This document shows positions 5,482 to 63,856 of a stretch of 64,000 bases of DNA, one piece after another (position 1 is the stretch's first letter; each line of letters starts with the position of its first letter). A program made the translations under genes and the position numbers. Below the pieces are notes generated by a model. It worked only from the letters and a program-made list of their open reading frames with translations. It had not been told where the DNA came from and made no database searches. The DNA is from an uncultured archaeon (GTDB lineage Archaea; Asgardarchaeota; Lokiarchaeia; Sigyniarchaeales; SOKP01): the NCBI GenBank assembly GCA_964508365.1, contig CAZDTP010000004.1:33681-97680 (forward strand), in the 5' to 3' direction.

Positions 5482-6393
5482 ATGACTGTTGAAGTTGAAG
5501 AATTAGATTCTGCTGACTCTAAAGAATCAAAAGAAGAAGTCACTAAAGAAAAAATTAAACTCCAATTTCATTGGTATTTGAGCATACTCTTTATAATTTA
5601 TTACTTATCTTATATCGTCTCTGGAGTCATTTTTCTGAGTTATATTATTTTTATATTTATTCCAAATGTCTTGTTAGTAGATAACCTCATTACGATATTC
5701 ACTAATCTTAAATCATTATTGGCTTTTTTAGCTTTACCTTTAGTTATTATGGTTAGTTATTTATCTCGCTTATTTATCACAGGATTGATAACTCGAATTT
5801 TCTGGAGATTAACTGAGAAAAGAAGCCCGACGAAAGATGGTATAATTCCACGAAATATCCCTTCCAAAACAGCTAATTATTACCATATAAGATCATTTAT
5901 GATAAAATATGGAAAAAACGCATTTATGAAAGGAGTGTTCCCGTGGCTGGCACCCTGGTTCTTTAATTATGTGGGAACTGGAATTATTAAAAGGGGCTCT
6001 ACATTAGAAGAATCCGTTGTTACAGATAAAAATATAAATGTCGGAAAAAATTGCTATGTTGGTTGCAATTCTGCATTATCCTCTCACTTTGTTGAAGGAA
6101 TATTTGGCAATATCGTCTATTTCGAAATCAAATTGGGAGAAAACACCACGCTCGGAGGATTTAACAATATTGCACCTGGATGTGAGCTAAGCGATAACTC
6201 ATACCTTTTACCAATGGCGGCTGCAACAAAACATAATACAACTAAAGGAGATAATTATTACTTTGGCATGCCCTTACGTCGTATTTTTAAGAAAAAGGTT
6301 ATGGATTACTTAAAAGTGAGTGAACAGGATTTATCTCGAGCTGAAGAATTAAGAATTAAACAAGAAAAAAAAAAATTAGAAAGACTAAATTGA
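5482..6393 (+). CDS. Membrane-anchored left-handed beta-helix (hexapeptide) acyltransferase-like protein, paralog A
   Basis: Two N-terminal TM helices followed by hexapeptide repeats (VGKNCYVGCNSALSSH, LGENTTLGGFNNIAPG) and a terminal YYFGMP. Confidence 0.8.
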   Translation: MTVEVEELDSADSKESKEEVTKEKIKLQFHWYLSILFIIYYLSYIVSGVIFLSYIIFIFIPNVLLVDNLITIFTNLKSLLAFLALPLVIMVSYLSRLFITGLITRIFWRLTEKRSPTKDGIIPRNIPSKTANYYHIRSFMIKYGKNAFMKGVFPWLAPWFFNYVGTGIIKRGSTLEESVVTDKNINVGKNCYVGCNSALSSHFVEGIFGNIVYFEIKLGENTTLGGFNNIAPGCELSDNSYLLPMAAATKHNTTKGDNYYFGMPLRRIFKKKVMDYLKVSEQDLSRAEELRIKQEKKKLERLN

Positions 6394-6440
6394 GCGATTT
6401 AGTAATATTTTAATTGAAATGGAGAGGAATTTATTAGATT

Positions 6441-7361
6441 TTGATTGAAGATACAAGTGATTCTGGACCTGAACTTCAACGGGAAATAGTTCAATTCCAG
6501 TATCAGAAATACATAGCCTTCTTCTTTTTTATTTATATAGGTTCTTATTTAGCGCCAGTCATAGCTCTAATGTTTTACCTTTTCTTAATTTTAAAACCCT
6601 TATTCTTAGAGGTAGACAGTTTTATTGTTATACTCACTAGTTTTGATTCTTTGATTATTTTTTTAACCCTCCCACTTGTAGTTGTTTTCTTCTATTTATC
6701 TCACCTATTTTTCTTAGGAATTTTTACACGAATTTCATGGAGATTTACAGAGAAGAGATCTCCGACTAAAGACGGGATAATTCCTCGTGATATTCTTTCA
6801 AAAACAGCAGATTACTACCACTACAGAAGTTTTATGATTAAATACGGCAAGAATGCTTTCATGAAAGGAATTTTCCCTTGGTTGGCAAATTGGTTTTTTA
6901 ACTTTGTTAAATCAAGCAAAATTGGAAGCGGATCCACCCTTGAAGAATCTGTAGGTAATGATAGACATATTGATGTTGGAAGAAATTGTTATATTGGAGT
7001 GAATTCCATATTAGCTTCTCATGTTGTTGAAGGTATTTTTGGTAACATCGTCTATTTTAAAGTAACAGTAAAAGATAATGCAACGCTCGGAGGTTTTAAT
7101 ACCATAGCTCCTGGGTGCGAGTTAAGCGAACATTCTTATTTATTGCCAATGGCTGCAGCAACAAAATTTAATACAACTAAGGGAAATAATTACTATTATG
7201 GTATCCCTTTTAGGCGGATCTTCAAAAAGAAGCTAATGGAATACATAAAAGTTAGTGAAGATGACTTGAATAGGGCAGAAGAACTAAGAATTAGGCAAGT
7301 AAACGCGAAACTCAACAGTTCAAATAAAGAAGAAATAAACAATAAAGAAAAACTAAATTAA
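6441..7361 (+). CDS. Membrane-anchored LbH acyltransferase-like protein, paralog B
   Basis: Closely similar to paralog A (TEKRSPTKDGIIPR, YHxRSFMIKYGKNAFMKG, SHxVEGIFGNIVYF). TTG start. Confidence 0.8.
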   Translation: MIEDTSDSGPELQREIVQFQYQKYIAFFFFIYIGSYLAPVIALMFYLFLILKPLFLEVDSFIVILTSFDSLIIFLTLPLVVVFFYLSHLFFLGIFTRISWRFTEKRSPTKDGIIPRDILSKTADYYHYRSFMIKYGKNAFMKGIFPWLANWFFNFVKSSKIGSGSTLEESVGNDRHIDVGRNCYIGVNSILASHVVEGIFGNIVYFKVTVKDNATLGGFNTIAPGCELSEHSYLLPMAAATKFNTTKGNNYYYGIPFRRIFKKKLMEYIKVSEDDLNRAEELRIRQVNAKLNSSNKEEINNKEKLN

Positions 7362-7379
7362 AGACATATGTGAAATAAA

Positions 7380-8300
7380 ATGACAGAAGAAGAAAAAGAT
7401 GAGCAAAAAGTTGTTAAGGAAGATGATGACACGGATGAGGACTCAGAATTTATTATAGACTTTACAACAAGCTCAGCAATAAATAGAGTAAGTTTGAAAT
7501 TTTTAGTTGTGTATATCCCAATATTCTGGTTTAGCGGTTTAGTAGTAGCTACCCTATGGTATAATTATACTATTAGTCCAGTACCTTGGGTTATCAAATT
7601 ATTGTTTTTACCTGTTTTATTGATAGCATTTTCGTTTCTTTTCATATTTAGCTGCTGCTTCTTCAGTAAATTATTGCTTATATTTATTAACCTTATTCAT
7701 GTCCCCAAAGAAGGAATATTTCGCACTGAAAAAGGTGATACTGACTTTGAATTTTGGAGATTAAGAACCGAGATTAAGAAGATAACTTTATGGCTAATAA
7801 GAAATTGGCCTCTACCCTGGATTGATGTGATAGCTTTTCGTTGGTTTGGAATTAAGATGGATTTTTCAAGCCATTTAAATGATTCATGGTGCGATGCTGA
7901 ATTTATTTCTTTTGGCAAAAACGTGACGATCGGCCAAGGCGCGGCGATTATGAGTTCAATGGTGGTAGGTAATTACCTCATCATTAAAAAGATTAGATTT
8001 GATGACTATTCACTTGTAGGAGGTCAGAGTACTATCGCCCCGGGAACGCATTTTGGGGAAGATACGGTGCTCGGTGCGGTGTCTGTAACAACCTTAAATC
8101 AAGAATTAGAAGACGGCTGGATCTATTCGGGTATACCAGCTAGAAAATTAAAACCCAACCAATACGCTGAAATGCGAAGAGATATTATTCATAAAGTAGA
8201 TGTCGATGGGAGAGAAAAAGTCGAAACTGAGCACGAAGTTAATATTGATGACGATAAAAAACATCTAATTAAACAAGATGATGGAGGTGTTAACGAGTGA
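7380..8300 (+). CDS. Membrane-anchored LbH acyltransferase-like protein, paralog C
   Basis: Two TM helices, PKEGIFR...FWRLR, then FGKNVTIGQGAAIMSS...GWIYSGIPA. Confidence 0.8.
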   Translation: MTEEEKDEQKVVKEDDDTDEDSEFIIDFTTSSAINRVSLKFLVVYIPIFWFSGLVVATLWYNYTISPVPWVIKLLFLPVLLIAFSFLFIFSCCFFSKLLLIFINLIHVPKEGIFRTEKGDTDFEFWRLRTEIKKITLWLIRNWPLPWIDVIAFRWFGIKMDFSSHLNDSWCDAEFISFGKNVTIGQGAAIMSSMVVGNYLIIKKIRFDDYSLVGGQSTIAPGTHFGEDTVLGAVSVTTLNQELEDGWIYSGIPARKLKPNQYAEMRRDIIHKVDVDGREKVETEHEVNIDDDKKHLIKQDDGGVNE

Positions 8301-9193
8301 GTACACCAAACTCAATGCGAGTCGGTCCTTTCTGTGCTAGCGTGTTAGTTAAAAAAAAGTACTTGATAGCATACATTTTTTTAATTTGGATAAGTCTGCT
8401 TCCCGCGATATTGGAAATTTGGTGGTACTGGCAGATGTTATGGTACGAGCCGCGACCAATTCACTTTTACATATTTCTACCCCTTTATTTATTCGTTATC
8501 TATGTTACAACTGTTCTTGTCGCCATCTTTTTCGCAAAAATTATATTAGTGATCGTTAACATTTTCCATAAACCTAGAGAGGGGGTGTTCCTTAGAGATC
8601 CTTCTGATAGGGATTACCGTTATTGGAGTCTTAGAAACACGATAAAAAAATGGCCAACTTGGCTCGCACATAAATTTCCATTTCCCTTCTTAGATAACAT
8701 ATGTTTTAAAATGTTTGGCGTAAAAACTAAATTTTCTAACTCCCTTTTTGAAGGTTGGGTAGATACTGAGTTTATAGAGTTCGGTTCTAATGTTGTTGTT
8801 GGTCAAGGTGCGATTATTCAATCTTCAGTAATTATAGGAAACTTTTTAATTATCAGAAAAACAGTTATCGAAGAAAACGTACGAGTTGGGGCACATGTAA
8901 TAATTATGCCTGGAACCCACATAGGAAAAAACTGTATTTTAAATACTTGGTCTTCTACAATGGTTGGACAGGAATTAGAAGAAGGGTGGATATACAATGG
9001 TGGTCCAGCAAAAAAGTTTAAGAAAAATAGGTTTTTTGAAGATATTCCAATTGAAAAACTTACTGAAACTATCGGAGACATGGACGGATTACTAAAGAAA
9101 TACGATGATCAATATGTTAAGAGAAAAATGAAAAAAAGGAAATTTCTTACTCGAAAAGATAAAGAGGAAAATGCCACGGAAGAAAAGGAATGA
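8297..9193 (+). CDS. Membrane-anchored LbH acyltransferase-like protein, paralog D
   Basis: GTG start overlaps the stop of C (GTGA), with GGAGG upstream. KPREGVFLR...YWSLR, FGSNVVVGQGAIIQSS, GWIYNGGPA. Confidence 0.8.
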   Translation: MSTPNSMRVGPFCASVLVKKKYLIAYIFLIWISLLPAILEIWWYWQMLWYEPRPIHFYIFLPLYLFVIYVTTVLVAIFFAKIILVIVNIFHKPREGVFLRDPSDRDYRYWSLRNTIKKWPTWLAHKFPFPFLDNICFKMFGVKTKFSNSLFEGWVDTEFIEFGSNVVVGQGAIIQSSVIIGNFLIIRKTVIEENVRVGAHVIIMPGTHIGKNCILNTWSSTMVGQELEEGWIYNGGPAKKFKKNRFFEDIPIEKLTETIGDMDGLLKKYDDQYVKRKMKKRKFLTRKDKEENATEEKE

Positions 9194-9984
9194 ACATGAA
9201 AATTGGATACGTACAAACTTCTCCAATTTTTGGGGACAAGGAGAAAAACTTTACACAAGTTAGGGACTTACTCGACAATGTTAAAGCGGATTTAATTGTA
9301 CTACCAGAGCTATTTGCTACAGGATACACTTTTGTATCAAAAAAAGAAGCAGAATCCTTAGCGGAACTTCCTGTTGGGAAAACTTCTGAATTTTTAATAG
9401 AACTTGCACATAAAACAAATGCAATTATTGTTGGAGGATTTATTGAAAAAGAAAATAGTCAGATATATAACTCTTCTCTAATTGTTTCGAGTAAGGGAGT
9501 TCTTGGCACTTATAGGAAACTCCATCTTTATTACAAAGAAAAACTATGGTTTTCACCTGGAAACCTGCCTTTAAAGGTTTATGAAATAAATAAAGTTAAA
9601 ATAGGAGTTATGATTTGTTTCGATTGGTTTTTTCCTGAGACGCCGCGCACTCTTGCTCTCCTAGGAGCAGATATTATAGCTCATCCCGCTAATTTAGTGC
9701 TTCCTTATTGCCAGAATGCTATGACAACCCATTGTTTAGTTAACCATGTATTTGCAATAACATCAAATAGAATAGGGCACGAAGCCAGAGGAACAGATAG
9801 TTTTACATTTACGGGAGGTAGTCAGATAACTTCGCAAAAGGGGAGTATAATATCTTCAGCGCCAACAGATCAAATTTTTGTAGATTTTACTGAAATCGAT
9901 GTAAATCAAGCTAGGGATAAGAGCATCAATATTTATAACAACCTTTTAAAAGATCGAAGACCAGAATTTTATCACATGAAATAA
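9190..9984 (+). CDS. Carbon-nitrogen hydrolase (nitrilase superfamily)
   Basis: E-K-C triad in LPELF, YRKLHL and ICFDWFFPE. ATGA overlap with paralog D. Confidence 0.9.
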   Translation: MNMKIGYVQTSPIFGDKEKNFTQVRDLLDNVKADLIVLPELFATGYTFVSKKEAESLAELPVGKTSEFLIELAHKTNAIIVGGFIEKENSQIYNSSLIVSSKGVLGTYRKLHLYYKEKLWFSPGNLPLKVYEINKVKIGVMICFDWFFPETPRTLALLGADIIAHPANLVLPYCQNAMTTHCLVNHVFAITSNRIGHEARGTDSFTFTGGSQITSQKGSIISSAPTDQIFVDFTEIDVNQARDKSINIYNNLLKDRRPEFYHMK

Positions 9985-9996
9985 ATTATTTTACTC

Positions 9997-11004
9997 ATGA
10001 AGGCAGCTATATTTGACGGGCGAGAGATTCAGATCAAGGAGATTCCTAAACCCGTCCTTAAAGATACTCAAGTTTTAATTCAAGTTAAAGCAGCAGGAAT
10101 TTGTGGAACAGATTTGGCCATAGCGAACGGTCATCTCCCTGTACCAATACCTCTAGTCTTAGGACACGAATTTTCGGGCATAGTTGTAGATATTGGTAAA
10201 AAAGTGAATCCCGACTGGTTGAAAAAACGAGTTACTTCTGAAATAAATAGCAATATTGATTTTAGTTGTTTTTTCTGTCAAAGGGATATTACATCCCAGT
10301 GCGAATCTCGGAAAGCATTGGGAATCGATATTAATGGAGCTTTTGCTGAGTTTATAGCTGTTGACTCTTATCTACTACACGAATTACCCGATAATATATC
10401 GTATAAAGAAGCTACATTTATCGAACCACTAGCGGCAGCATATCAAACTTTCGAAACAATGCCTTTAGGAAGCGATGATAAAACAATTGCAATTTTCGGA
10501 CTCGGAAAATTAGGATTATTACTCTGTCAAGTTGCTGTAATTAAAGGATTAGAGGTAATAGGAATGGATCACTCAGATAGAAAGCTTAATTTAGCTAAGA
10601 ATTTTGGGGTAAAGCATTTAATTAATAATAATGAAAATGAGAGTGTAGAAGGTAGGATAAAAAAAATAACAGGAAATCTTGGTGCCGATATCGTTGTTGA
10701 CACCACCGGTAATCCAAATGCTCTTAAAGAAATTGTTTCTTCCTGTAGAAGTAGAGGTAAAATCCATATTAAAAGTACTCATGGTTTAAAAACTCCAATT
10801 AATCTCACTGATATTGTAGTAAGAGAAATTACCATATATAGTAGTAGGTGTGGACCATTTCATAAAGCTATTGATGGACTAAGTTCGGGATTAATAAATG
10901 TTAAAGATCTAATTTCGAAAGAATTTAAATTAGAAAATATAGCTGATGCTTTTAATTCTTATAAAAAGAGTAGAGATCACATCAAGACCATCATTTTAAT
11001 TTAG
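9997..11004 (+). CDS. Zn-dependent medium-chain alcohol dehydrogenase (threonine-dehydrogenase-like)
   Basis: GICGTD, GHEFSG, CFFC...C structural Zn site, and GLGKLG nucleotide-binding motif. Confidence 0.9.
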   Translation: MKAAIFDGREIQIKEIPKPVLKDTQVLIQVKAAGICGTDLAIANGHLPVPIPLVLGHEFSGIVVDIGKKVNPDWLKKRVTSEINSNIDFSCFFCQRDITSQCESRKALGIDINGAFAEFIAVDSYLLHELPDNISYKEATFIEPLAAAYQTFETMPLGSDDKTIAIFGLGKLGLLLCQVAVIKGLEVIGMDHSDRKLNLAKNFGVKHLINNNENESVEGRIKKITGNLGADIVVDTTGNPNALKEIVSSCRSRGKIHIKSTHGLKTPINLTDIVVREITIYSSRCGPFHKAIDGLSSGLINVKDLISKEFKLENIADAFNSYKKSRDHIKTIILI

Positions 11005-11389
11005 CGAATAAAATTTGGCTTTCTAAAAAGTTTTTAATCTCCTCACATGTTTTTAGAGCGATCTCTTTATCTGGATATAATAATTTGGGTTTCGGACATT
11101 CTTCATCAAATATACATTGTTTTTTGTCCGAATCATAAATTAGTGGGTAAAAACGGCACCCTTGTGGTCTCACTTCGTAAATTGTACACAATTTAGCAGC
11201 ACTATCAAAGAACACACAGTAACCTTTAACATTTTTCAATAGATTAAATCCTTCCACGGTTTTTCGTACAAAATTGGCTATTTTTAAATGTTTAGGGTTA
11301 TTATTTTTAATAAGATCAATATCATTAGTAGATAAGAGCATCTCTGTTTCAATACAGCATTTTCCACAATCCTTACAGATATTTTTCAT
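10991..11389 (-). CDS. YkgJ-family cysteine-cluster (Zn/Fe-chelating) protein
   Basis: CKDCGKCC...CVFFD...CTIYEVRPQGCRFYP. Confidence 0.88.
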   Translation of the reverse strand: MKNICKDCGKCCIETEMLLSTNDIDLIKNNNPKHLKIANFVRKTVEGFNLLKNVKGYCVFFDSAAKLCTIYEVRPQGCRFYPLIYDSDKKQCIFDEECPKPKLLYPDKEIALKTCEEIKNFLESQILFAKLK

Positions 11390-11552
11390 AATTGTATAAA
11401 GCTCTTTATTGTTTTTATAAAAAGTAACAATTATTCGATACGATTTTCCATTAGAATCAAATTGAGAAAGTAAAAAAATAATTATTTTAAATTATAAATG
11501 TAATCTTTGTTCTTAATTATATTTCAATCGTCAAAAAAGTAACTATAAACAA

Positions 11553-11699
11553 ATGACTGAAGAACTCAAACCAGCTAAATCCAAGAAAGCTGAAGACTCT
11601 GAGGAAAAAGTTATTAAAGAACAAATGAAAGTGCAATATAGAACTTATATCTTTATTTTGCTATTATCTATTATGCTCTTGGATTGTCGTCCTTCTTGA
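11553..11699 (+). pseudogene. Truncated 5' relic of a fifth LbH acyltransferase paralog (48 codons)
   Basis: MTEELKPAKSKKAEDSEEKVIKEQMKVQYRTYIFILLLSIMLLDCRPS* resembles the N-termini of paralog A (KEEVTKEKIKLQFHWYLSILFII) and paralog B (REIVQFQYQKYI). Confidence 0.6.
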
Positions 11700-57269: not shown

Positions 57270-57482
57270 TTGAGCGAAACTTCTCTAAAAATTTTCAGTC
57301 TTGGTAGTCCCGGAGTGGGAAAAACTTCCTTTATCATTCGTCTTTTAAGTGGCTATTTTTTAGAAAATCTAACTAGCGTTAAAATCATCTACATCAGTAG
57401 TAATATATCAACCACTTTTATTATTCAGGATCAGGAGCAAAAACTGCCGTATGAACCAATTTTCCTATTGGTTCTTTATTAA
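57270..57482 (+). pseudogene. N-terminal relic of a Ras/Rab-like small GTPase
   Basis: LKIFSLGSPGVGKTSFIIRL (beta1 plus P-loop) with no DxxG or NKxD afterwards. The ORF tail overlaps the GPP34 gene. Confidence 0.65.
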
Positions 57483-58026
57483 TTAACTCTTTCATCCGTG
57501 ATTTGACTTGTTTTTTATGTTCTTTACCTAAAATTTCTTTATAGTAGCTAGTCGCTCTTATTATGCTAAGGAAATACATGAATGTTTTATCAGGTACATT
57601 GTTATTTTGTAAAAGAACTTCCCTTAACTTATTAATAATCTCTTCACTCAGGTCATGATTGAAATTTAACACCGTAAACTCATATATTCTTGCTAATCTT
57701 ACTCTTTTAAAAGACAAATTCATTAAGTTTAAAGACTCTAAATGCTCTGTGAAGAGTGGAAATAAATATTCACCTCTTTTTTTAAAAAAAAATTTTTTAA
57801 AATAGAATGAAATTTTTTTATTCGTGTCGAATTCTGAGATTATCGACAAAGCCCCATCAAGATAAGAGTCTCCCGTTGAAGTGGTATCAATTAAATTCAT
57901 TCTAGATCCAATAATTTCTACTTTCATTTTGATTATCAAATCCATTAATACTGCTCCATATATTCCCGCTTCCTCGATATATTTAGAATTTTTTGCTTTA
58001 AATAAGACATGCATATCGGAAACCAA
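57421..58026 (-). CDS. GPP34/GOLPH3 (Vps74)-family protein, possibly 5'-damaged
   Basis: GAVLMDL...VEI...IDTTSTGDSYLDGAL matches the GPP34 pattern. The in-frame upstream sequence LSV*FIIIL*VLSEKRGR looks like the missing N-terminal helix with two stops. Confidence 0.72.
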   Translation of the reverse strand: MVSDMHVLFKAKNSKYIEEAGIYGAVLMDLIIKMKVEIIGSRMNLIDTTSTGDSYLDGALSIISEFDTNKKISFYFKKFFFKKRGEYLFPLFTEHLESLNLMNLSFKRVRLARIYEFTVLNFNHDLSEEIINKLREVLLQNNNVPDKTFMYFLSIIRATSYYKEILGKEHKKQVKSRMKELINKEPIGKLVHTAVFAPDPE

Positions 58027-58199
58027 TAATGATGATAATATGATTATCCTCCCTCTCTTTTCACTTAAAACTTATAATATGATTATGAACTAAACAGATA
58101 ATTTAGTATATAAACTTATTAAGACTGAAATTAAATAATGCTAATTATGTTTAATAAAAACTGATAACGATATGGCTCTGGCAATGAAATTAATATAGA

Positions 58200-58500
58200 A
58201 TAAAAGCTCAATTTTTTTTAACGAAGCGCCAATACCGATATGTAGCGAGAAGTTCATAGAAATTTAAGTAATTGCCGTTCATAAGTTTGAAACAAGAGGG
58301 TTTCACTATGATGATAATACTATTTTATGGAGCGCTAAGAGAAATATTTTAGTGAAGCAAGTGAAATTTATTCCAAGAAGGGTGATAAAGAGAGTTTTGT
58401 GAGATTATTATGCCTTATAGCGTCAGCTTCATATCTCCTCATGTCTTATAATATTAATCAAGAAGAATTTTATTTCCTCTTAATGAATTTCTGCTCATAA
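58200..58500 (+). pseudogene. Possible decayed fragment of a TPR-protein paralog
   Basis: One frame gives KYFSEASEIYSKKGDKESFVRLL, similar to LFLKSKEIYSKNSDFNGQARCL in the downstream gene; many stops. Confidence 0.35.
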
Positions 58501-58707
58501 TACCTAATACTCCTAATTAACCAAATTAGGATACTTCTAATCAAAAATGGACTCATATAATAGTAAAAGAATAAATAATCAAACTAGACTGCTTGCTCTC
58601 AATTTTAAATTCTCCTTAATAACGAAAGTGAAAGTCTTAAATAAAGAAATATTCAATTAATAATTGACTTTAAGTCCTCGAAATTATGAAGAGATGATTA
58701 ATAGGAT

Positions 58708-61700
58708 TTGGAATTAGTCGAAGAGGCAAATAGCAATGAAAGAAGGTTCGAGTGGTTAGAAGCTGCAATTACATATTATCGAATCTCTGAAAGTTTGTTA
58801 GAACGTAAACAATATATTAAAGCAGCTGAATATTATAAAAAAGCTGGAAACGCATTCAAAAATCACGCTAATACTGTAAATAATTCGGAGGATTACATTG
58901 AAAGCAAAATGAAAGCAATAGAGGCCTACAATAAAGCCAGTGGTATTTTTAAACAACAATCTGATAGGGCTCAATTGCTTGAGGTTAATGCTGAGATAAA
59001 TTTAATTAAGGGATTAATACAAACTTCAGTTCCTAAAGCTAAGGAATTCTATCAGAATTCTTATGAATTATTTCTAAAATCAAAAGAAATTTATTCAAAA
59101 AATTCAGATTTTAACGGTCAAGCAAGATGTTTGAATGGATTAGGTTGGACTCTTTACTATAAATGTTTTTGCTGTGAAGATGCTGTGGAAATCGAAAATC
59201 TTGGTTTTTTATTACTAGCTTCAACCAAGGAATGTTGGGATATTTCAAAAAAGATAAATGAAGCGTGGTTTATGGCGAATTCAATGCTTCTTGAATATCA
59301 CATGTCTATTTTCCTCCAATTTATTATTCCTTTTACGCAGGAAAAGACTTGGATCAAAATAATAGAGGATCAAAAAAAAAGATTTGATCAGACTGCTATT
59401 CTATTAGACGATTGTGAAGATTCTAGAGTTTTAGCAACATTATTTCTCACACTTGGTGATTGGTACTGTAATTATGCTTTTTACTTCAATAGAAATGATA
59501 AGGAACAAAGATATTTTGGAGATATTGGATTAAATTATTTTCAAAAAGGTTTGAACTTGGCTAGGATAGCTAAAGACAAATCAATTTTAATAGTAGCATT
59601 AGTTAGAATCAATTATCATTCATTATTTTTAGGCAGATTTAAATTCGTACAAACCAGAGTCGAGGAGGATATAAATGAAAGCGAAAAGTTAGGTCAAATT
59701 TTTAATAACATGCATAATTTTTTAAAGCCTTTATCAATAATGTTAAAACCAATATATTATTCTAATATTGCACAAAGAAGTTTCCTAAATCCAAACCAAA
59801 GAAAATTTTATGCTTTAAAAGCAATTAGCTCTGGAGAGACATGTATCAAAGCATTCAATAATGTTTCTTTTCCTGTTATTGTTCCTATCTATCAATTTTT
59901 AGCATGGGCATATTCTCAATTAGTATATATAACAGAAACGGGTTCGGTTCGTGATAAGTACTCAGAACTGATGTTATTTAAAGCAAAAAAAGCTGCTGAG
60001 ATTAGTCGGGAATATAAAGGAGGACTTGCTAAAGCAGGAGGTTTTTCATCATTATATAAAAGTTATAAAACTCTTGCAGATATAAGTGAGACCAAGGATA
60101 TAAAAATAAAAATGCTTGAGTCTACAATTGATGCTCAAAAGCAATATATGGAACAAGAAATTGAATCACGTACCGGAATACTTGGTGCTTATATAAGGTT
60201 AGGGATATTATATGAAGAACTTGGTATTATCAAAAATAAGGAGGATTTACTAAAAAAAGCTCAAGATTTGTTTAAATACTCCGCTACTGAGGCTGTTGAT
60301 AAGGGTTATGACTCGTATGCTGCCACTGCACATGAATATCTAGCCAGGATTGACGATAGGTTAGGACAGTACAAAAATTCAGCTAAAAATTATGAAATAG
60401 CTCAACAGTTATATGAAAAATCGTTGAGTAATATAGAGTATATCCTTTTAAAAAAAAAAGTAAGAAATAAAGCTAATTATTTACACGCTTGGAGTTTAAT
60501 AGAGAATGCTAAATTTTACCATAAACAAGAAGATCACTTGATTTCGAAGGATTCTTATAAAAAAGCTTCTGAGATATTAAAAAGCACCAGGGGTTTTAAA
60601 TTTGAGGCTCCATATTATTTTGCTTGGACCCTATTGGAAGAAGCTGAGGAATTGAGTAAGAGAGATGAACATGATTTTGCAATAAATCAATATCAAACTG
60701 CTATAGACGGTTTTAAAGGAGCATTAAATATCTTAAATAAATCTGTAAATAATGTGAAAGATAAATTTGAGGTTCAGAGAATCAATAAATTAATGAAAGT
60801 AGCTGAGATCCGAATAGAATATTGTTCTGCAAAAATTAATCTTGAACATGCGAGAAATTTAGCCAAGATCGGTAAGAAAGTGGAAGCTGCTGATAGATTT
60901 GGCACCGCAGCATCGATTTTTAGAAATTTATGTTATCGTTTTAAGATAAAATTTGAGAAAGAAGAACTTGAGGCAATTTATTACCTCTGCAGAGCTTGGG
61001 AAGTCATGGAATTAGCTGAAAAACATAAAGATCCAAATAGATTTGGTGAAGCTTCAGTTTTATTTAGGAAAGCGAGTGATCTCTTTCATGAAGGTAAATT
61101 GAAATTATTAGCCTTAGGGAATTCTGACTTCTGTAAAGCATTAAAAATGGGATGTAAATTCGACGAATTAATAGAAACTGAATCAAAAAAACAACTATAT
61201 CCCGTCATTAAAACTAAATTAAGGAAAGCAGCAGAATCATATAATAGAGGAGGATTTAATAAGGGTTCTCAGTGGGCTTTAGCGACTTCAACTTATTTCG
61301 ATGCAACTTGGCATATAATGAAAGCTGATAAGGAAATTGATTTAGTAGAGAAAGAAAGACTATTAAAATTAGGTTCCAAGATACTAGAATCAACAGCAAA
61401 TCTCTTTAAAAATGCAGGATATAGAGAAAAGGAAAGGGAAATATTGGAAAAAATGTCAATGATCAAGCAAGAAGAAAAAATTATCTTATCTGCATTAAAT
61501 TCAATTCGAAAACCAGAAATATCAAATATCACCACTGGGATTATTGCACCCTCTTGTCCCTTAGAAACAAGTCAATCTCCTCGATTAAGTGAAACTCGTC
61601 AGTTCAGTGATGAAGAAAAACGTGTAGCGATAGAGAGAATAGATAGAAAGAAATATCAATTAGTCTATAGAGATCTGTTAAAAGAACATCCTAAAGTTCA

Positions 61701-62526
61701 TAAAAGCGAGTGTAGAGTTGGTATTGCTCAAATAATTGTATCCGAAACCGAAGATATCATGAAAGAATTATTCGAAATGAAATCTTCAGGACTTCTAAGT
61801 GTTAGAGAGAATAAAATTGAAGAAATAAGATCTAAAGTTAAAATTTTGATTGAAAAGGCACATAATGAGGGAGTTAATATATTGCTCTTTCCTGAAATGT
61901 CTATTGACCTTAATTACATTGAATTATATGAAGAATTATCAGATATAGCCAAATTATACGAGATGTACATAGTTCCAGGCTCTTTTCATGATCAAGAAAC
62001 AAAACGAAATATTTGTAAGGTTTTTGGACCAGAGGGTATTCTTTGGGAACAAGAGAAGCATATTCCGGCAGTCATTAGTACCGGAGCTGGAAAGCACTTT
62101 AAAGAAGGAATAAATGTTATCAGTATGCCACGGAAAACAATTATTTGTAATACCGAATATGGTAGAATAGCAATCGCTATTTGTCGAGACTTTCTTGATA
62201 TGGATTTAAGAGTAGAATTAAAAAATTTCGAACCTCCGATAGATATAATTCTTAATCCTGCCTTTACACCAGTAACAGCTGATTTTAAAGCAGCTCATTT
62301 TGATGCACGCAGATCTATTTATGCTTATTCATTTTTCGCTAATATTGGGGAATTTGGAGAATCTCTTATCTATACACCGGAAAAAGACCGTACTGATCGA
62401 ATTATTCCTGCAAAAAAGGAGGATTTAATCTATAAAGATATTTATCTTTTCAAACTTCGTTCTGAACGCCAGAAATGGGAAAAAGAGAAGAATAAAGAAC
62501 GTTTATTCATCCAAAGCACAAGATAA
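58708..62526 (+). CDS. Large TPR/alpha-solenoid protein with C-terminal carbon-nitrogen hydrolase (nitrilase-fold) domain
   Basis: About 950 aa of AAxxYxKA-type helical repeats, linker APSCPLETSQSP, then LLFPEMS, QEKHIP and AICRDF (E-K-C triad). Confidence 0.85.
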   Translation: MELVEEANSNERRFEWLEAAITYYRISESLLERKQYIKAAEYYKKAGNAFKNHANTVNNSEDYIESKMKAIEAYNKASGIFKQQSDRAQLLEVNAEINLIKGLIQTSVPKAKEFYQNSYELFLKSKEIYSKNSDFNGQARCLNGLGWTLYYKCFCCEDAVEIENLGFLLLASTKECWDISKKINEAWFMANSMLLEYHMSIFLQFIIPFTQEKTWIKIIEDQKKRFDQTAILLDDCEDSRVLATLFLTLGDWYCNYAFYFNRNDKEQRYFGDIGLNYFQKGLNLARIAKDKSILIVALVRINYHSLFLGRFKFVQTRVEEDINESEKLGQIFNNMHNFLKPLSIMLKPIYYSNIAQRSFLNPNQRKFYALKAISSGETCIKAFNNVSFPVIVPIYQFLAWAYSQLVYITETGSVRDKYSELMLFKAKKAAEISREYKGGLAKAGGFSSLYKSYKTLADISETKDIKIKMLESTIDAQKQYMEQEIESRTGILGAYIRLGILYEELGIIKNKEDLLKKAQDLFKYSATEAVDKGYDSYAATAHEYLARIDDRLGQYKNSAKNYEIAQQLYEKSLSNIEYILLKKKVRNKANYLHAWSLIENAKFYHKQEDHLISKDSYKKASEILKSTRGFKFEAPYYFAWTLLEEAEELSKRDEHDFAINQYQTAIDGFKGALNILNKSVNNVKDKFEVQRINKLMKVAEIRIEYCSAKINLEHARNLAKIGKKVEAADRFGTAASIFRNLCYRFKIKFEKEELEAIYYLCRAWEVMELAEKHKDPNRFGEASVLFRKASDLFHEGKLKLLALGNSDFCKALKMGCKFDELIETESKKQLYPVIKTKLRKAAESYNRGGFNKGSQWALATSTYFDATWHIMKADKEIDLVEKERLLKLGSKILESTANLFKNAGYREKEREILEKMSMIKQEEKIILSALNSIRKPEISNITTGIIAPSCPLETSQSPRLSETRQFSDEEKRVAIERIDRKKYQLVYRDLLKEHPKVHKSECRVGIAQIIVSETEDIMKELFEMKSSGLLSVRENKIEEIRSKVKILIEKAHNEGVNILLFPEMSIDLNYIELYEELSDIAKLYEMYIVPGSFHDQETKRNICKVFGPEGILWEQEKHIPAVISTGAGKHFKEGINVISMPRKTIICNTEYGRIAIAICRDFLDMDLRVELKNFEPPIDIILNPAFTPVTADFKAAHFDARRSIYAYSFFANIGEFGESLIYTPEKDRTDRIIPAKKEDLIYKDIYLFKLRSERQKWEKEKNKERLFIQSTR

Positions 62527-62575: not shown

Positions 62576-63072
62576 TTAGTATTTCCTTTCTTTTACTTCA
62601 AATATACCTAATACAACCAGTTTAGTTTTCAAGTCTAAGCCATCCTTTCCGCGATATATCATTAAATGGCTACGCAGTAGCTTCTGCAATGTCTAACATA
62701 GATCTGAGTTCCGCCAAAGGGGCGTTGGGCAATCAGACCTGATTCTAATCTTGAAAATGGCGCACCCATACTTTCAAACTCAACCACGATTTTTGGAGCC
62801 TCCTTATATATGAACATGACTACATCCTGATCTGCAAGATAATCCGAACCTTTTACAGTATCAAAGGCATGTCCTTCTGGTGTGTTTTTTTTGCTCTCTT
62901 CTAAATTACCCAATACTGCATTAATTCAGCCTTGAGCCGCTACTGAATAGCTTCTGATGGGATAAATTTTGCTAATGACCGCGGTGTTCCATTTTTTGGA
63001 TAACTCTGAGCCTGCTCTAAGACCACTTAAACCCGCGCCTACTACAACTACATCAAATTCTTCAACTCTCAT
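62576..63072 (-). pseudogene. sdhA: Succinate dehydrogenase/fumarate reductase flavoprotein relic with two internal deletions
   Basis: [17 protein letters not shown]...[14 protein letters not shown]...DTVKGSDYLADQD...IAQRPFGG, then out of frame ELRSMLDIAEATA, then HLMIYRGKDG...GIFEVKERKY*. Confidence 0.88.
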
Positions 63073-63157: not shown

Positions 63158-63856
63158 TTAATAATCAAAAATTAAGGCTCTTCCTTTTTTACCAACAACT
63201 TCGATTAAACCCATCTTTCTTAAACAATAGCTCATTTTTCGAGCTAAATTTAATGATATTTTAAGTGAATATGCTAATTCCAAATTAGTAAATGGAGTTT
63301 TTAAACTTGTAGGTTTAAGCATGAGAAAATCCATGGGCGTGTAAAAAGTCTTTTTTTCCAAAACTTTAACTAATTTCCGGTTGTAAATACTCCAACCATT
63401 TCTTCTCCAACTTCCATTCCCGTCATTCTTACGGTATTCTTCTATTTGAACGAGGGGCAATTCAATAGTGAAATTTAGGTTTGAAATGAATTCAGGAATT
63501 CTGATCAATTCTTCGAATATGCCTACATAAGAGTTATGTTTTGGAGATAATCGCTTGCTAATAGCTCTATTTGTTTGAGGTTCTACATTAATAATCCATT
63601 TGTCTTTTACGATTGGGTGTATTAAAAGAATTTTATGATTGGCCATTAGCTTTTCCAGTTTTCTCTTAATGATAGAAAAATTTTTGGTCTGTATCTCAAT
63701 TAGAAGATCATCTCGTACTATGTCAATTATGAAGTTATCAACTGGTGCTTCAAGCTGGTCTTCTGATTCCTTGTACCATAATTTTAAGTCAGCATGGAGA
63801 GAACTCTCATGTAAAGTTCCAATGCTTGATGAGAAATTAATGAATGGCTTGGTCAC
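63158..63856 (-). CDS. Conserved putative PD-(D/E)xK nuclease with C-terminal winged HTH
   Basis: IGTLHESSLHADLK...E.PVDNFIIDIVRDDLLIEIQT and C-terminal FTNLELA...ARKMSYCLRKMGLIEVVGKKG. Confidence 0.7.
   Translation of the reverse strand: MTKPFINFSSSIGTLHESSLHADLKLWYKESEDQLEAPVDNFIIDIVRDDLLIEIQTKNFSIIKRKLEKLMANHKILLIHPIVKDKWIINVEPQTNRAISKRLSPKHNSYVGIFEELIRIPEFISNLNFTIELPLVQIEEYRKNDGNGSWRRNGWSIYNRKLVKVLEKKTFYTPMDFLMLKPTSLKTPFTNLELAYSLKISLNLARKMSYCLRKMGLIEVVGKKGRALIFDY

Follow-up and report, generated by a model that had tools for sequence, protein, structure and literature searches.

The 64,000-nucleotide stretch of contig CAZDTP010000004.1 analyzed here (assembly GCA_964508365.1; hereafter the window, with coordinates counted from its first letter) derives from an Asgard archaeon and carries, at 58708..62526 on the forward strand, a gene for a 1,272-amino-acid (aa) protein, P0001, in which a long TPR-type helical solenoid is joined through a conserved linker to a C-terminal nitrilase-superfamily module. 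The evidence tips modestly toward P0001 being a single-chain conflict or immune-type receptor-enzyme. Comparison with relatives fits an architecture of repeat sensor plus enzymatic effector, the latter apparently kin to the nitrilase of DRT1 anti-phage systems, and we infer an immune, ligand-gated or toxic role for the protein; an initial annotation made from the sequence alone had proposed ligand-gated amidase/deamidase signaling or defense.

Modularity provides the strongest evidence in the analysis. As the initial annotation anticipated, other C-terminal domains occur on the same TPR scaffold: in place of the nitrilase, solenoid and linker carry TIR_2 in P0119, L003 and L008 (E values of 6e-15 to 3e-11), a calcineurin-like metallophosphoesterase in L004 (Metallophos, E = 7e-11), a Cys-rich zinc-ribbon or RING-like end (CPNC...C..C...CW.CN) in L006 (1253-4465, reverse strand) and L007 (4013-7279, forward strand), and a roadblock/longin-like end in L005 (3543-6926, reverse strand). 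At locus L008, the TIR-ended solenoid copy lies directly upstream of a nitrilase-ended copy. PADLOC gave no match for the TIR and zinc-ribbon variants and weak matches only for the metallophosphoesterase variant (PDC-S10, 9.1e-05; Cas11f, 0.0018).

The nitrilase module is likewise found behind other front ends. When residues 960-1272 were searched exhaustively with HMMER, 48 cluster representatives fell below an E value of 1e-30, followed by partial sequences and then, from about 1e-12, by full-length relatives of ~30% identity. In close relatives (60 to 72% identical), the module is C-terminal to a P-loop NTPase (the paralog in P0001's own genome), a RING finger plus protein kinase, NosD beta-helices or TPR_12. 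Bacterial members, which are myxobacterial, have an alpha/beta-hydrolase front, as in P0160 (WP_053232411.1) of Sandaracinus amylolyticus, and members of this type retain a FVQSTR or FIQSTR tail; the module is therefore not limited to archaea. Among 58 distant relatives, fusions to LRR (7), HEAT (6), nSTAND3 (3) and TPR (2) were present. No fusion to a reverse transcriptase (RT) was found in the 10 distant relatives scanned singly or among the 25 commonest families of the 58.

The module occupies residues 976-1272 (61633..62523, forward strand, as for all P0001 features below) and is assigned by its model, structural Z score, the PADLOC RTasNitrilase profile and Pfam. The model of residues 955-1272 has a predicted local distance difference test score (pLDDT) of 93.8. 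VIA aligned 237 residues with mouse Nit2 (2w1v) at a Z score of 25.5 and a root mean square deviation of 3.3 Å, the next 49 nitrilase-superfamily entries listed had Z scores of 22.7 to 24.5, and Foldseek returned a nitrilase-fold match (E = 2.5e-16). As modeled, the domain is a four-layer alpha-beta-beta-alpha nitrilase fold. The E-K-C triad that the initial annotation saw in this fold is present and extends to an E-K-E-C tetrad. Catalytic Glu1063 in the FPE motif (codon 61894..61896) is kept in 37 of 38 close representatives; Lys1117 in the EQEKH motif (62056..62058) is kept in all 38 and invariant in 60/60 aligned sequences; the second glutamate, Glu1133 (62104..62106), is kept in 38/38; and the nucleophile Cys1159 in the ICRDFLD motif (62182..62184) is kept in 37/38 close and 19 of 22 distant relatives, its equivalent being lost in just one close representative. 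Further signatures of the module are CRDFLD(M/L)DLR and HF(D/E)ARRS(I/V/L)YA.

Two helices (residues 1163-1173 and 1191-1204; 62194..62319) form a predicted homodimer interface, most of which lies in the best-conserved part of P0001. The homodimer prediction scored 0.53, compared with 0.00 for the best of 3 controls, but this score may stem from resemblance to known structures, since nitrilase dimers have already been solved. At least 45% of the predicted contacts agree between runs, with partner pLDDT of at least 83. In calibration, 20 of 30 proteins solved as one-chain pairs attained the mark for this score, as did 1 of 23 single-chain proteins. All 38 close representatives carry the C-terminal tail FIQSTR (residues 1267-1272; 62506..62523) at 0 to 2 residues from the C terminus, with conservative substitutions in 8 (F to Y, I to V, T to V, R to K), and none of its residues is among the confident contacts of the predicted module homodimer.

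Profile comparisons suggest that the module leans toward the defense-associated nitrilases. P0001 matches Pfam CN_hydrolase (PF00795) at 19.5 bits (E = 6.8e-4), under the gathering cutoff of 23.2; PF00795 is present in most P0001 orthologues, and the own-genome paralog scores 34 to 38 bits. The PADLOC RTasNitrilase model (PDLC03804) matches P0001 at 43.6 bits (E = 4.7e-12) over residues 976-1233. Four CN-hydrolase genes are present in the genome of the window: two encode housekeeping enzymes of ~275 aa, which score 138 and 91 bits with Pfam and are unmatched by RTasNitrilase, and two encode the module-bearing proteins, which in the genome scan score 20 and 38 bits with Pfam and 45 and 58 bits with RTasNitrilase. 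The module thus does not behave like the housekeeping CN hydrolases of this genome (housekeeping amidases being the alternative named in the initial annotation): its profile behavior is opposite to that of the two resident enzymes, and it matches RTasNitrilase. In control genomes, the RTasNitrilase model matched 1 of 14 and PF00795 matched 12 of 14. Searching with a family profile also recovered DRT1 (9yfd) at E = 3.3e-6 and 29.6 bits, aligning profile positions 98-315, almost all of the domain, with DRT1 residues 1003-1225. A single-sequence search of solved chains with the module yielded Nit2-type proteins only, DRT1 emerging just via the family profile. One ordinary CN-hydrolase gene lies in the window itself (9199-9915, forward strand; 273-aa frame; PF00795, 138 bits) and provides an internal contrast to the module.

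The remainder of P0001 is built largely of helical repeats, and the array read by the initial annotation is reproduced as an all-helical TPR-type solenoid of ~920 aa. The AlphaFold2 model of residues 1-975 (31-row alignment) has a mean pLDDT of 88.9 and a predicted template modeling (TM) score of 0.80, with 38 consecutive helices and no strands to about residue 920. Foldseek placed the solenoid beside eukaryotic TPR superhelices (Ctr9, Ski3, IFT-A, APC subunits and OGT) with a probability of 1.0 and TM scores of merely 0.2 to 0.36, and it is therefore taken to be of generic TPR type. Pfam TPR_12 scored 31.8 bits, narrowly above the cutoff of 30.1, and no PADLOC sensor family was matched by the solenoid.

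Conservation divides the solenoid into three parts. Its front (residues 1-330; 58708..59697), helical with pLDDT mostly >90, is hypervariable by identity blocks and is the proposed recognition surface; the middle (residues 331-680; 59698..60747), all helical, is of intermediate conservation; and the rear third, TPRc (residues 681-935; 60748..61512), is conserved. TPRc is shared with the NTPase-nitrilase paralog and with short NTPase-TPRc proteins that head JAB-E1-E2 operons; a phmmer search with it gave matches in L139, L140, L141 and L013, and the own-genome paralog is 58% identical to P0001 over residues 680-1272. The linker that follows (residues 936-975; 61513..61632) contains APSCPLETSQSP at residues 948-959, the Cys-containing segment singled out in the initial annotation. 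This Cys/Ser/Pro-type motif is conserved family-wide and kept in every variant, including nitrilase-free ones, and G944, I945, P948, E953, S955 and S957 are nearly invariant in 31 sequences. Model confidence is lower here, with pLDDT of 65 to 81 per block over residues 901-970 and 47 for residues 971-975.

Full-length relatives of 1,234 to 1,294 aa, 48 to 53% identical end to end, occur in Asgard metagenome-assembled genomes labeled Promethearchaeota/Lokiarchaeota, Hermod-, Hod-, Thor-, Heimdall- and Odinarchaeota. The 90%-identity cluster of P0001 comprises 3 sequences, its nearest relative outside is 53% identical, and the tree built from 26 full-length copies places P0001 on a long branch. 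Matches were present in 106 of the 300 genomes of a phylum-wide sample and were confined to a few families. Within the family to which the window belongs, genomes of at least 90% completeness have 0 to 13 solenoid copies, and in the same genus the gene was found in 13 of 24 genomes searched, with several 100%-complete genomes lacking a match. The P0001 family is hence neither single-copy nor universal; a single-copy, conserved gene is what the initial annotation would have counted against the sensor-effector reading. Tandem copies are frequent, with three consecutive copies at each of the loci L011 and L012 and five or more on one contig of genome G189, and the tree contains several old paralog lineages that are retained in differing combinations per genome. 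Two contigs from bins labeled “Nanopelagicaceae bacterium” (L061, DATKTW010000007.1) and “Pacearchaeota archaeon” (L135, JAFCGI010000032.1) carry Asgard-type solenoid-nitrilase genes with modules 85% and 64% identical, respectively; both contigs are probably mis-binned.

Sequence divergence is graded along the protein. Among the 26 full-length copies, mean pairwise identity per 50-residue block is 0.27 to 0.44 over residues 1-330 (0.27 to 0.35 over 51-350), 0.6 to 0.7 over 700-950 and 0.92 over 1151-1200. Between tandem paralogs, identity rises from 26 to 32% over residues 1-330 to 43 to 50% over residues 331-680, 60 to 71% over residues 681-935 and 65 to 79% in the nitrilase; for paralogs in general, the last three ranges are 41 to 50%, 55 to 71% and 65 to 86%. 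Such divergence at the front, with an enzymatic rear that hardly changes, would be the pattern expected of a sensor-effector.

The design of P0001, a repeat sensor with a swappable effector and a nitrilase effector as in DRT1, is already known in kind. The DRT1 nitrilase is an effector required for defense; it depends on assembly, its substrate is not known, and it forms the core of a tetramer and filament regulated by a domain-swapped conserved C terminus (PMC13275509, PMC8632793). Class 3 UG/Abi RTs have either a nitrilase or a phosphohydrolase attached (PMC13275509). Like DRT1 (UG1) and other class 3 RT-nitrilases (9yfd), P0001 is a large multidomain protein that ends in a nitrilase-fold effector with the tetrad and a conserved C-terminal tail, which in DRT1 completes a neighbor's active site. 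In addition, the alternation of nitrilase with phosphohydrolase in the RTs is paralleled by that of nitrilase with metallophosphoesterase on the P0001 scaffold. Unlike DRT1, P0001 matches no RT family and has no RT among the neighbors scanned, and it would therefore not be regulated through a DNA adduct. It differs further in the 920-aa TPR solenoid upstream and its Asgard host, and a small membrane partner is not evident.

Receptors of the STAND/NLR type and other TPR or LRR receptors (Avs, bNACHT, nSTAND and TIR-TPR) share with P0001 the combination of repeat sensor and swappable effector, TIR included, and with its family the expansion, patchy presence and variable sensor regions. The fusion of distant module relatives to nSTAND3, LRR and TPR provides a further link. 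In P0001, unlike these receptors, the effector is C-terminal and stands behind a family-specific linker. No published description of the family was found in full-text literature on Asgard nitrilase, TIR and defense proteins, on nitrilase-STAND and conflict systems, or in a recent Asgard solenoid survey.

For the trigger, activation by assembly, substrate and outcome of P0001 action, we infer the following course. In its first third, which diverges fast, the TPR solenoid would bind a trigger; a viral protein or peptide, or one from another mobile element, is the likeliest candidate. Binding would relieve autoinhibition and gather copies of the protein, whose nitrilase modules may then pair via their near-invariant helical surface and assemble further. 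The E-K-E-C site would finally break a C-N bond of some conserved molecule in the cell, so that cell or invader is stopped. Members of the nitrilase superfamily need such assembly for activity, and TIR domains are generally held to need assembly as well; this shared need would explain why TIR and nitrilase interchange behind the same linker.

The most serious alternative, which we nevertheless consider unlikely, is that P0001 is a non-immune signaling or regulatory scaffold of an Asgard-specific network of small GTPases and accessory ubiquitin-like proteins, with output domains that modify or mark clients recruited by the solenoid; the nitrilase could, for example, act as a protein amidase, by analogy with nitrilase-fold Nta1 in the N-degron pathway. 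It draws on the own-genome paralog, which lies in a tight five-gene operon on contig 31 (L013, 6062-11576) that encodes a Ras-like small GTPase (6062-6631), an 870-aa roadblock/longin-like-P-loop NTPase-TPRc-linker-nitrilase protein (6884-9496; P-loop GELGVGKT), JAB (9516-10019), a ThiF-type E1 (10049-10939) and E2 (11010-11576). In the genus, the JAB-E1-E2 operon is headed by an NTPase protein with or without the TPRc and nitrilase parts (nitrilase is absent in G201 and G104, and TPRc in G231), and solenoid-nitrilase arrays adjoin the operon in three other genomes (G065, G117 and G219; loci L008, L012 and L045). Together with the relative that fuses a RING finger and kinase to the module and the solenoids that end in a RING-like zinc ribbon, this operon link keeps a reading of ubiquitin-linked signaling open. 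In this genus, the nitrilase module or TPRc stands in or beside an operon comparable to accessory archaeal ubiquitin-like operons (JAB-E1-E2, Caldiarchaeum type) and to type II CBASS Cap2/Cap3. Unlike in those systems, however, the P0001 gene is not beside JAB-E1-E2, and no cyclase is present. The link was seen at loci of the window's genus only; E1, E2 and JAB were not found near P0001, at 20 NTPase-nitrilase loci and at most of 20 solenoid loci of other genera. E1, E2 and JAB modules also regulate known defense systems, and the L013 JAB and E1 weakly match the PADLOC models JAB and E1-E2. TIR swaps, patchy presence, 0 to 13 copies and a hypervariable front would be unusual for a core scaffold. 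E1-mediated conjugation of the nitrilase C terminus, as in type II CBASS, was considered and is not indicated, because the operon head genes end in unrelated C termini; the tail is also kept in lineages in which no such operon was seen. The open reading frame (ORF) after E2 (L013, 11920-12177), considered as a candidate ubiquitin-like protein, is unlike one.

Two further explanations place the weight on the module itself, and both are given a slim chance. According to the first, the module is an assembly or adaptor domain, with a strongly conserved dimer surface through which paralogs that differ in their sensors co-assemble, and catalysis is secondary. Block 1151-1200, with its identity of 0.92, indeed holds most of the predicted dimer interface and not merely the active site, and the DRT1 nitrilase is itself a structural core; retention of the full tetrad in 37 to 38 of 38 representatives, with the cysteine missing from a single close one, argues for catalysis. 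Slightly slimmer still is the chance that P0001 is a housekeeping or metabolic amidase with a large TPR scaffold for localization or complex assembly. The fold and tetrad are those of an ordinary C-N hydrolase, mouse Nit2 is the top solved match by both sequence and structure, and the neighbors of P0001 in the window are metabolic. The module shares with metabolic nitrilases (Nit2 omega-amidase 2w1v, PH0642-type amidases and beta-ureidopropionase) the fold (Z scores of 23 to 25.5), E-K-E-C and a predicted helical-surface dimer. It is unlike them in its 13 to 22% identity, subthreshold Pfam score, own signatures, FIQSTR tail and constant fusion to large sensor-like parts. Moreover, typical CN hydrolases are already supplied by two other genes of the genome (Pfam scores of 91 to 138 bits versus 19.5 for the P0001 domain). 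Searches of many complete genomes in the genus turned up no copy of the P0001 gene, and other genomes have as many as 13; on the same scaffold, TIR and other modules take the place of the enzyme; and the neighbors are not conserved.

Several observations weigh against the receptor-enzyme reading of P0001. The zinc-ribbon/RING-like and roadblock/longin-like ends are non-enzymatic outputs on the same scaffold, and the tie between module and operon in one genus could point to signaling rather than defense. Old paralog lineages with a uniform length of ~1,275 aa would also suit a conserved cellular role. P0001 differs from characterized STAND receptors in matching no NTPase family, residues 1-920 forming an uninterrupted helical solenoid. 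Similarity to DRT1 is remote, its 29.6 bits to 9yfd being no better than the match of the same profile to mouse Nit2 (32.0 bits, slightly higher over a shorter stretch). Foldseek and VIA were also tried as a means of placing the module nearer to DRT1 or to metabolic enzymes; all 50 entries listed had Z scores of 22.7 to 25.5, with 9yfd absent, and structure comparison therefore has no power to separate defense-type from metabolic nitrilases. The genomic setting is equally unsupportive. Genes around P0001 encode a PFL-like glycyl-radical enzyme, an MFS transporter, citrate synthase, fumarase and an alpha/beta hydrolase, along with a GPP34-like protein, and PADLOC found no match in the two adjacent ORFs (GPP34-like and 232 aa). 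Flanks in other genomes consist mostly of genes for methyltransferases, TauE and Fe-S proteins. No conserved partner was found around 20 NTPase-nitrilase loci, where clustering of flanking ORFs gave antisense shadow ORFs only, and no defense island was seen at the P0001 locus or in the flanks examined in other genomes.

The P0001 ORF is intact, with 1,272 codons, no internal stop and a terminal stop at 62524-62526. Its TTG start is credible, because its N terminus coincides in the alignment with the Met-Glu-Leu at which homologues begin, and its GC content of ~30% is similar to that of the surrounding DNA. About 25 to 55 bp 5' of the TTG, two elements were read from the forward strand: a 7-bp inverted repeat (TCAATTA-A-TAATTGA; 58653-58667) and the box TTAAGTCCTCGAAAT (58670-58684). 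By-eye comparison of upstream regions revealed a similar box, TTAAGGTCGAAAT, 5' of the nearest paralog lineage (L033, L036 and L048); the remaining paralog lineages have upstream boxes of their own that are common within the lineage. The inverted repeat and TTAAGTCCTCGAAAT are a possible promoter or operator.

Directly downstream of P0001 lies a decayed sdhA/frdA-type flavoprotein remnant (62576-63072, reverse strand) with several in-frame stops, of which an 83-aa piece still matches FAD_binding_2. It is followed by the 232-aa ORF (63158-63856, reverse strand), described in the initial annotation as a nearby PD-(D/E)xK-winged helix-turn-helix gene. The nuclease motif is plausible (IIDIV ... 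EIQTK), and Pfam gave a weak C-terminal winged-helix match only (TFIIE_alpha, E = 0.007). A link to the solenoid family was not borne out, as homologues of this ORF in the same genus (50 to 69% identical) were found on contigs other than those that bear the solenoid genes of the respective genomes. The closest relative genome, G267, lacks the P0001 gene. A lone 818-bp match to its contig 233 (96% identity; window 57400-58216) covers the GPP34-like gene and ~190 bp, with unrelated flanks, and the P0001 locus is therefore mosaic. This match suggests that 57400-58216 is a small mobile or recombined cassette. A clean insertion boundary at P0001 was sought against G267 and could not be drawn, as only the GPP34-like segment matches. 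The P0001 locus is in a region of genome flux, indicated by the 818-bp match and the decayed sdhA, which counts in favor of the receptor-enzyme reading.

On a broader scale, and more tentatively than for P0001 itself, the Asgard archaea might possess a large, undescribed and NTPase-free family of innate immune receptors, with a hypervariable TPR solenoid that senses invaders, induced assembly and swappable nitrilase, TIR or metallophosphoesterase outputs; the nitrilase would be an ancient module that bacteria fuse to RT, STAND and LRR proteins and that is wired to E1-E2-JAB in one genus. Nitrilase domains were established as anti-phage effectors only recently (2026), in DRT1. The P0001 family provides RT-free versions of the module on many sensors, which could ease the search for the target of the enzyme. 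The tie to a ubiquitin-like operon and to GTPase and longin-like proteins in one genus offers a testable bridge from protein tagging to effector enzymes. Should the receptor reading be true, Asgard archaea hold an expanded NLR-like, NTPase-free repertoire with TIR and nitrilase outputs, which would bear on a pre-eukaryotic origin of repeat-based innate immune receptors. Such a family, if real, would represent a new and widespread class of immune effector, acting on a yet undiscovered C-N-bond substrate, in the closest prokaryotic kin of eukaryotes.

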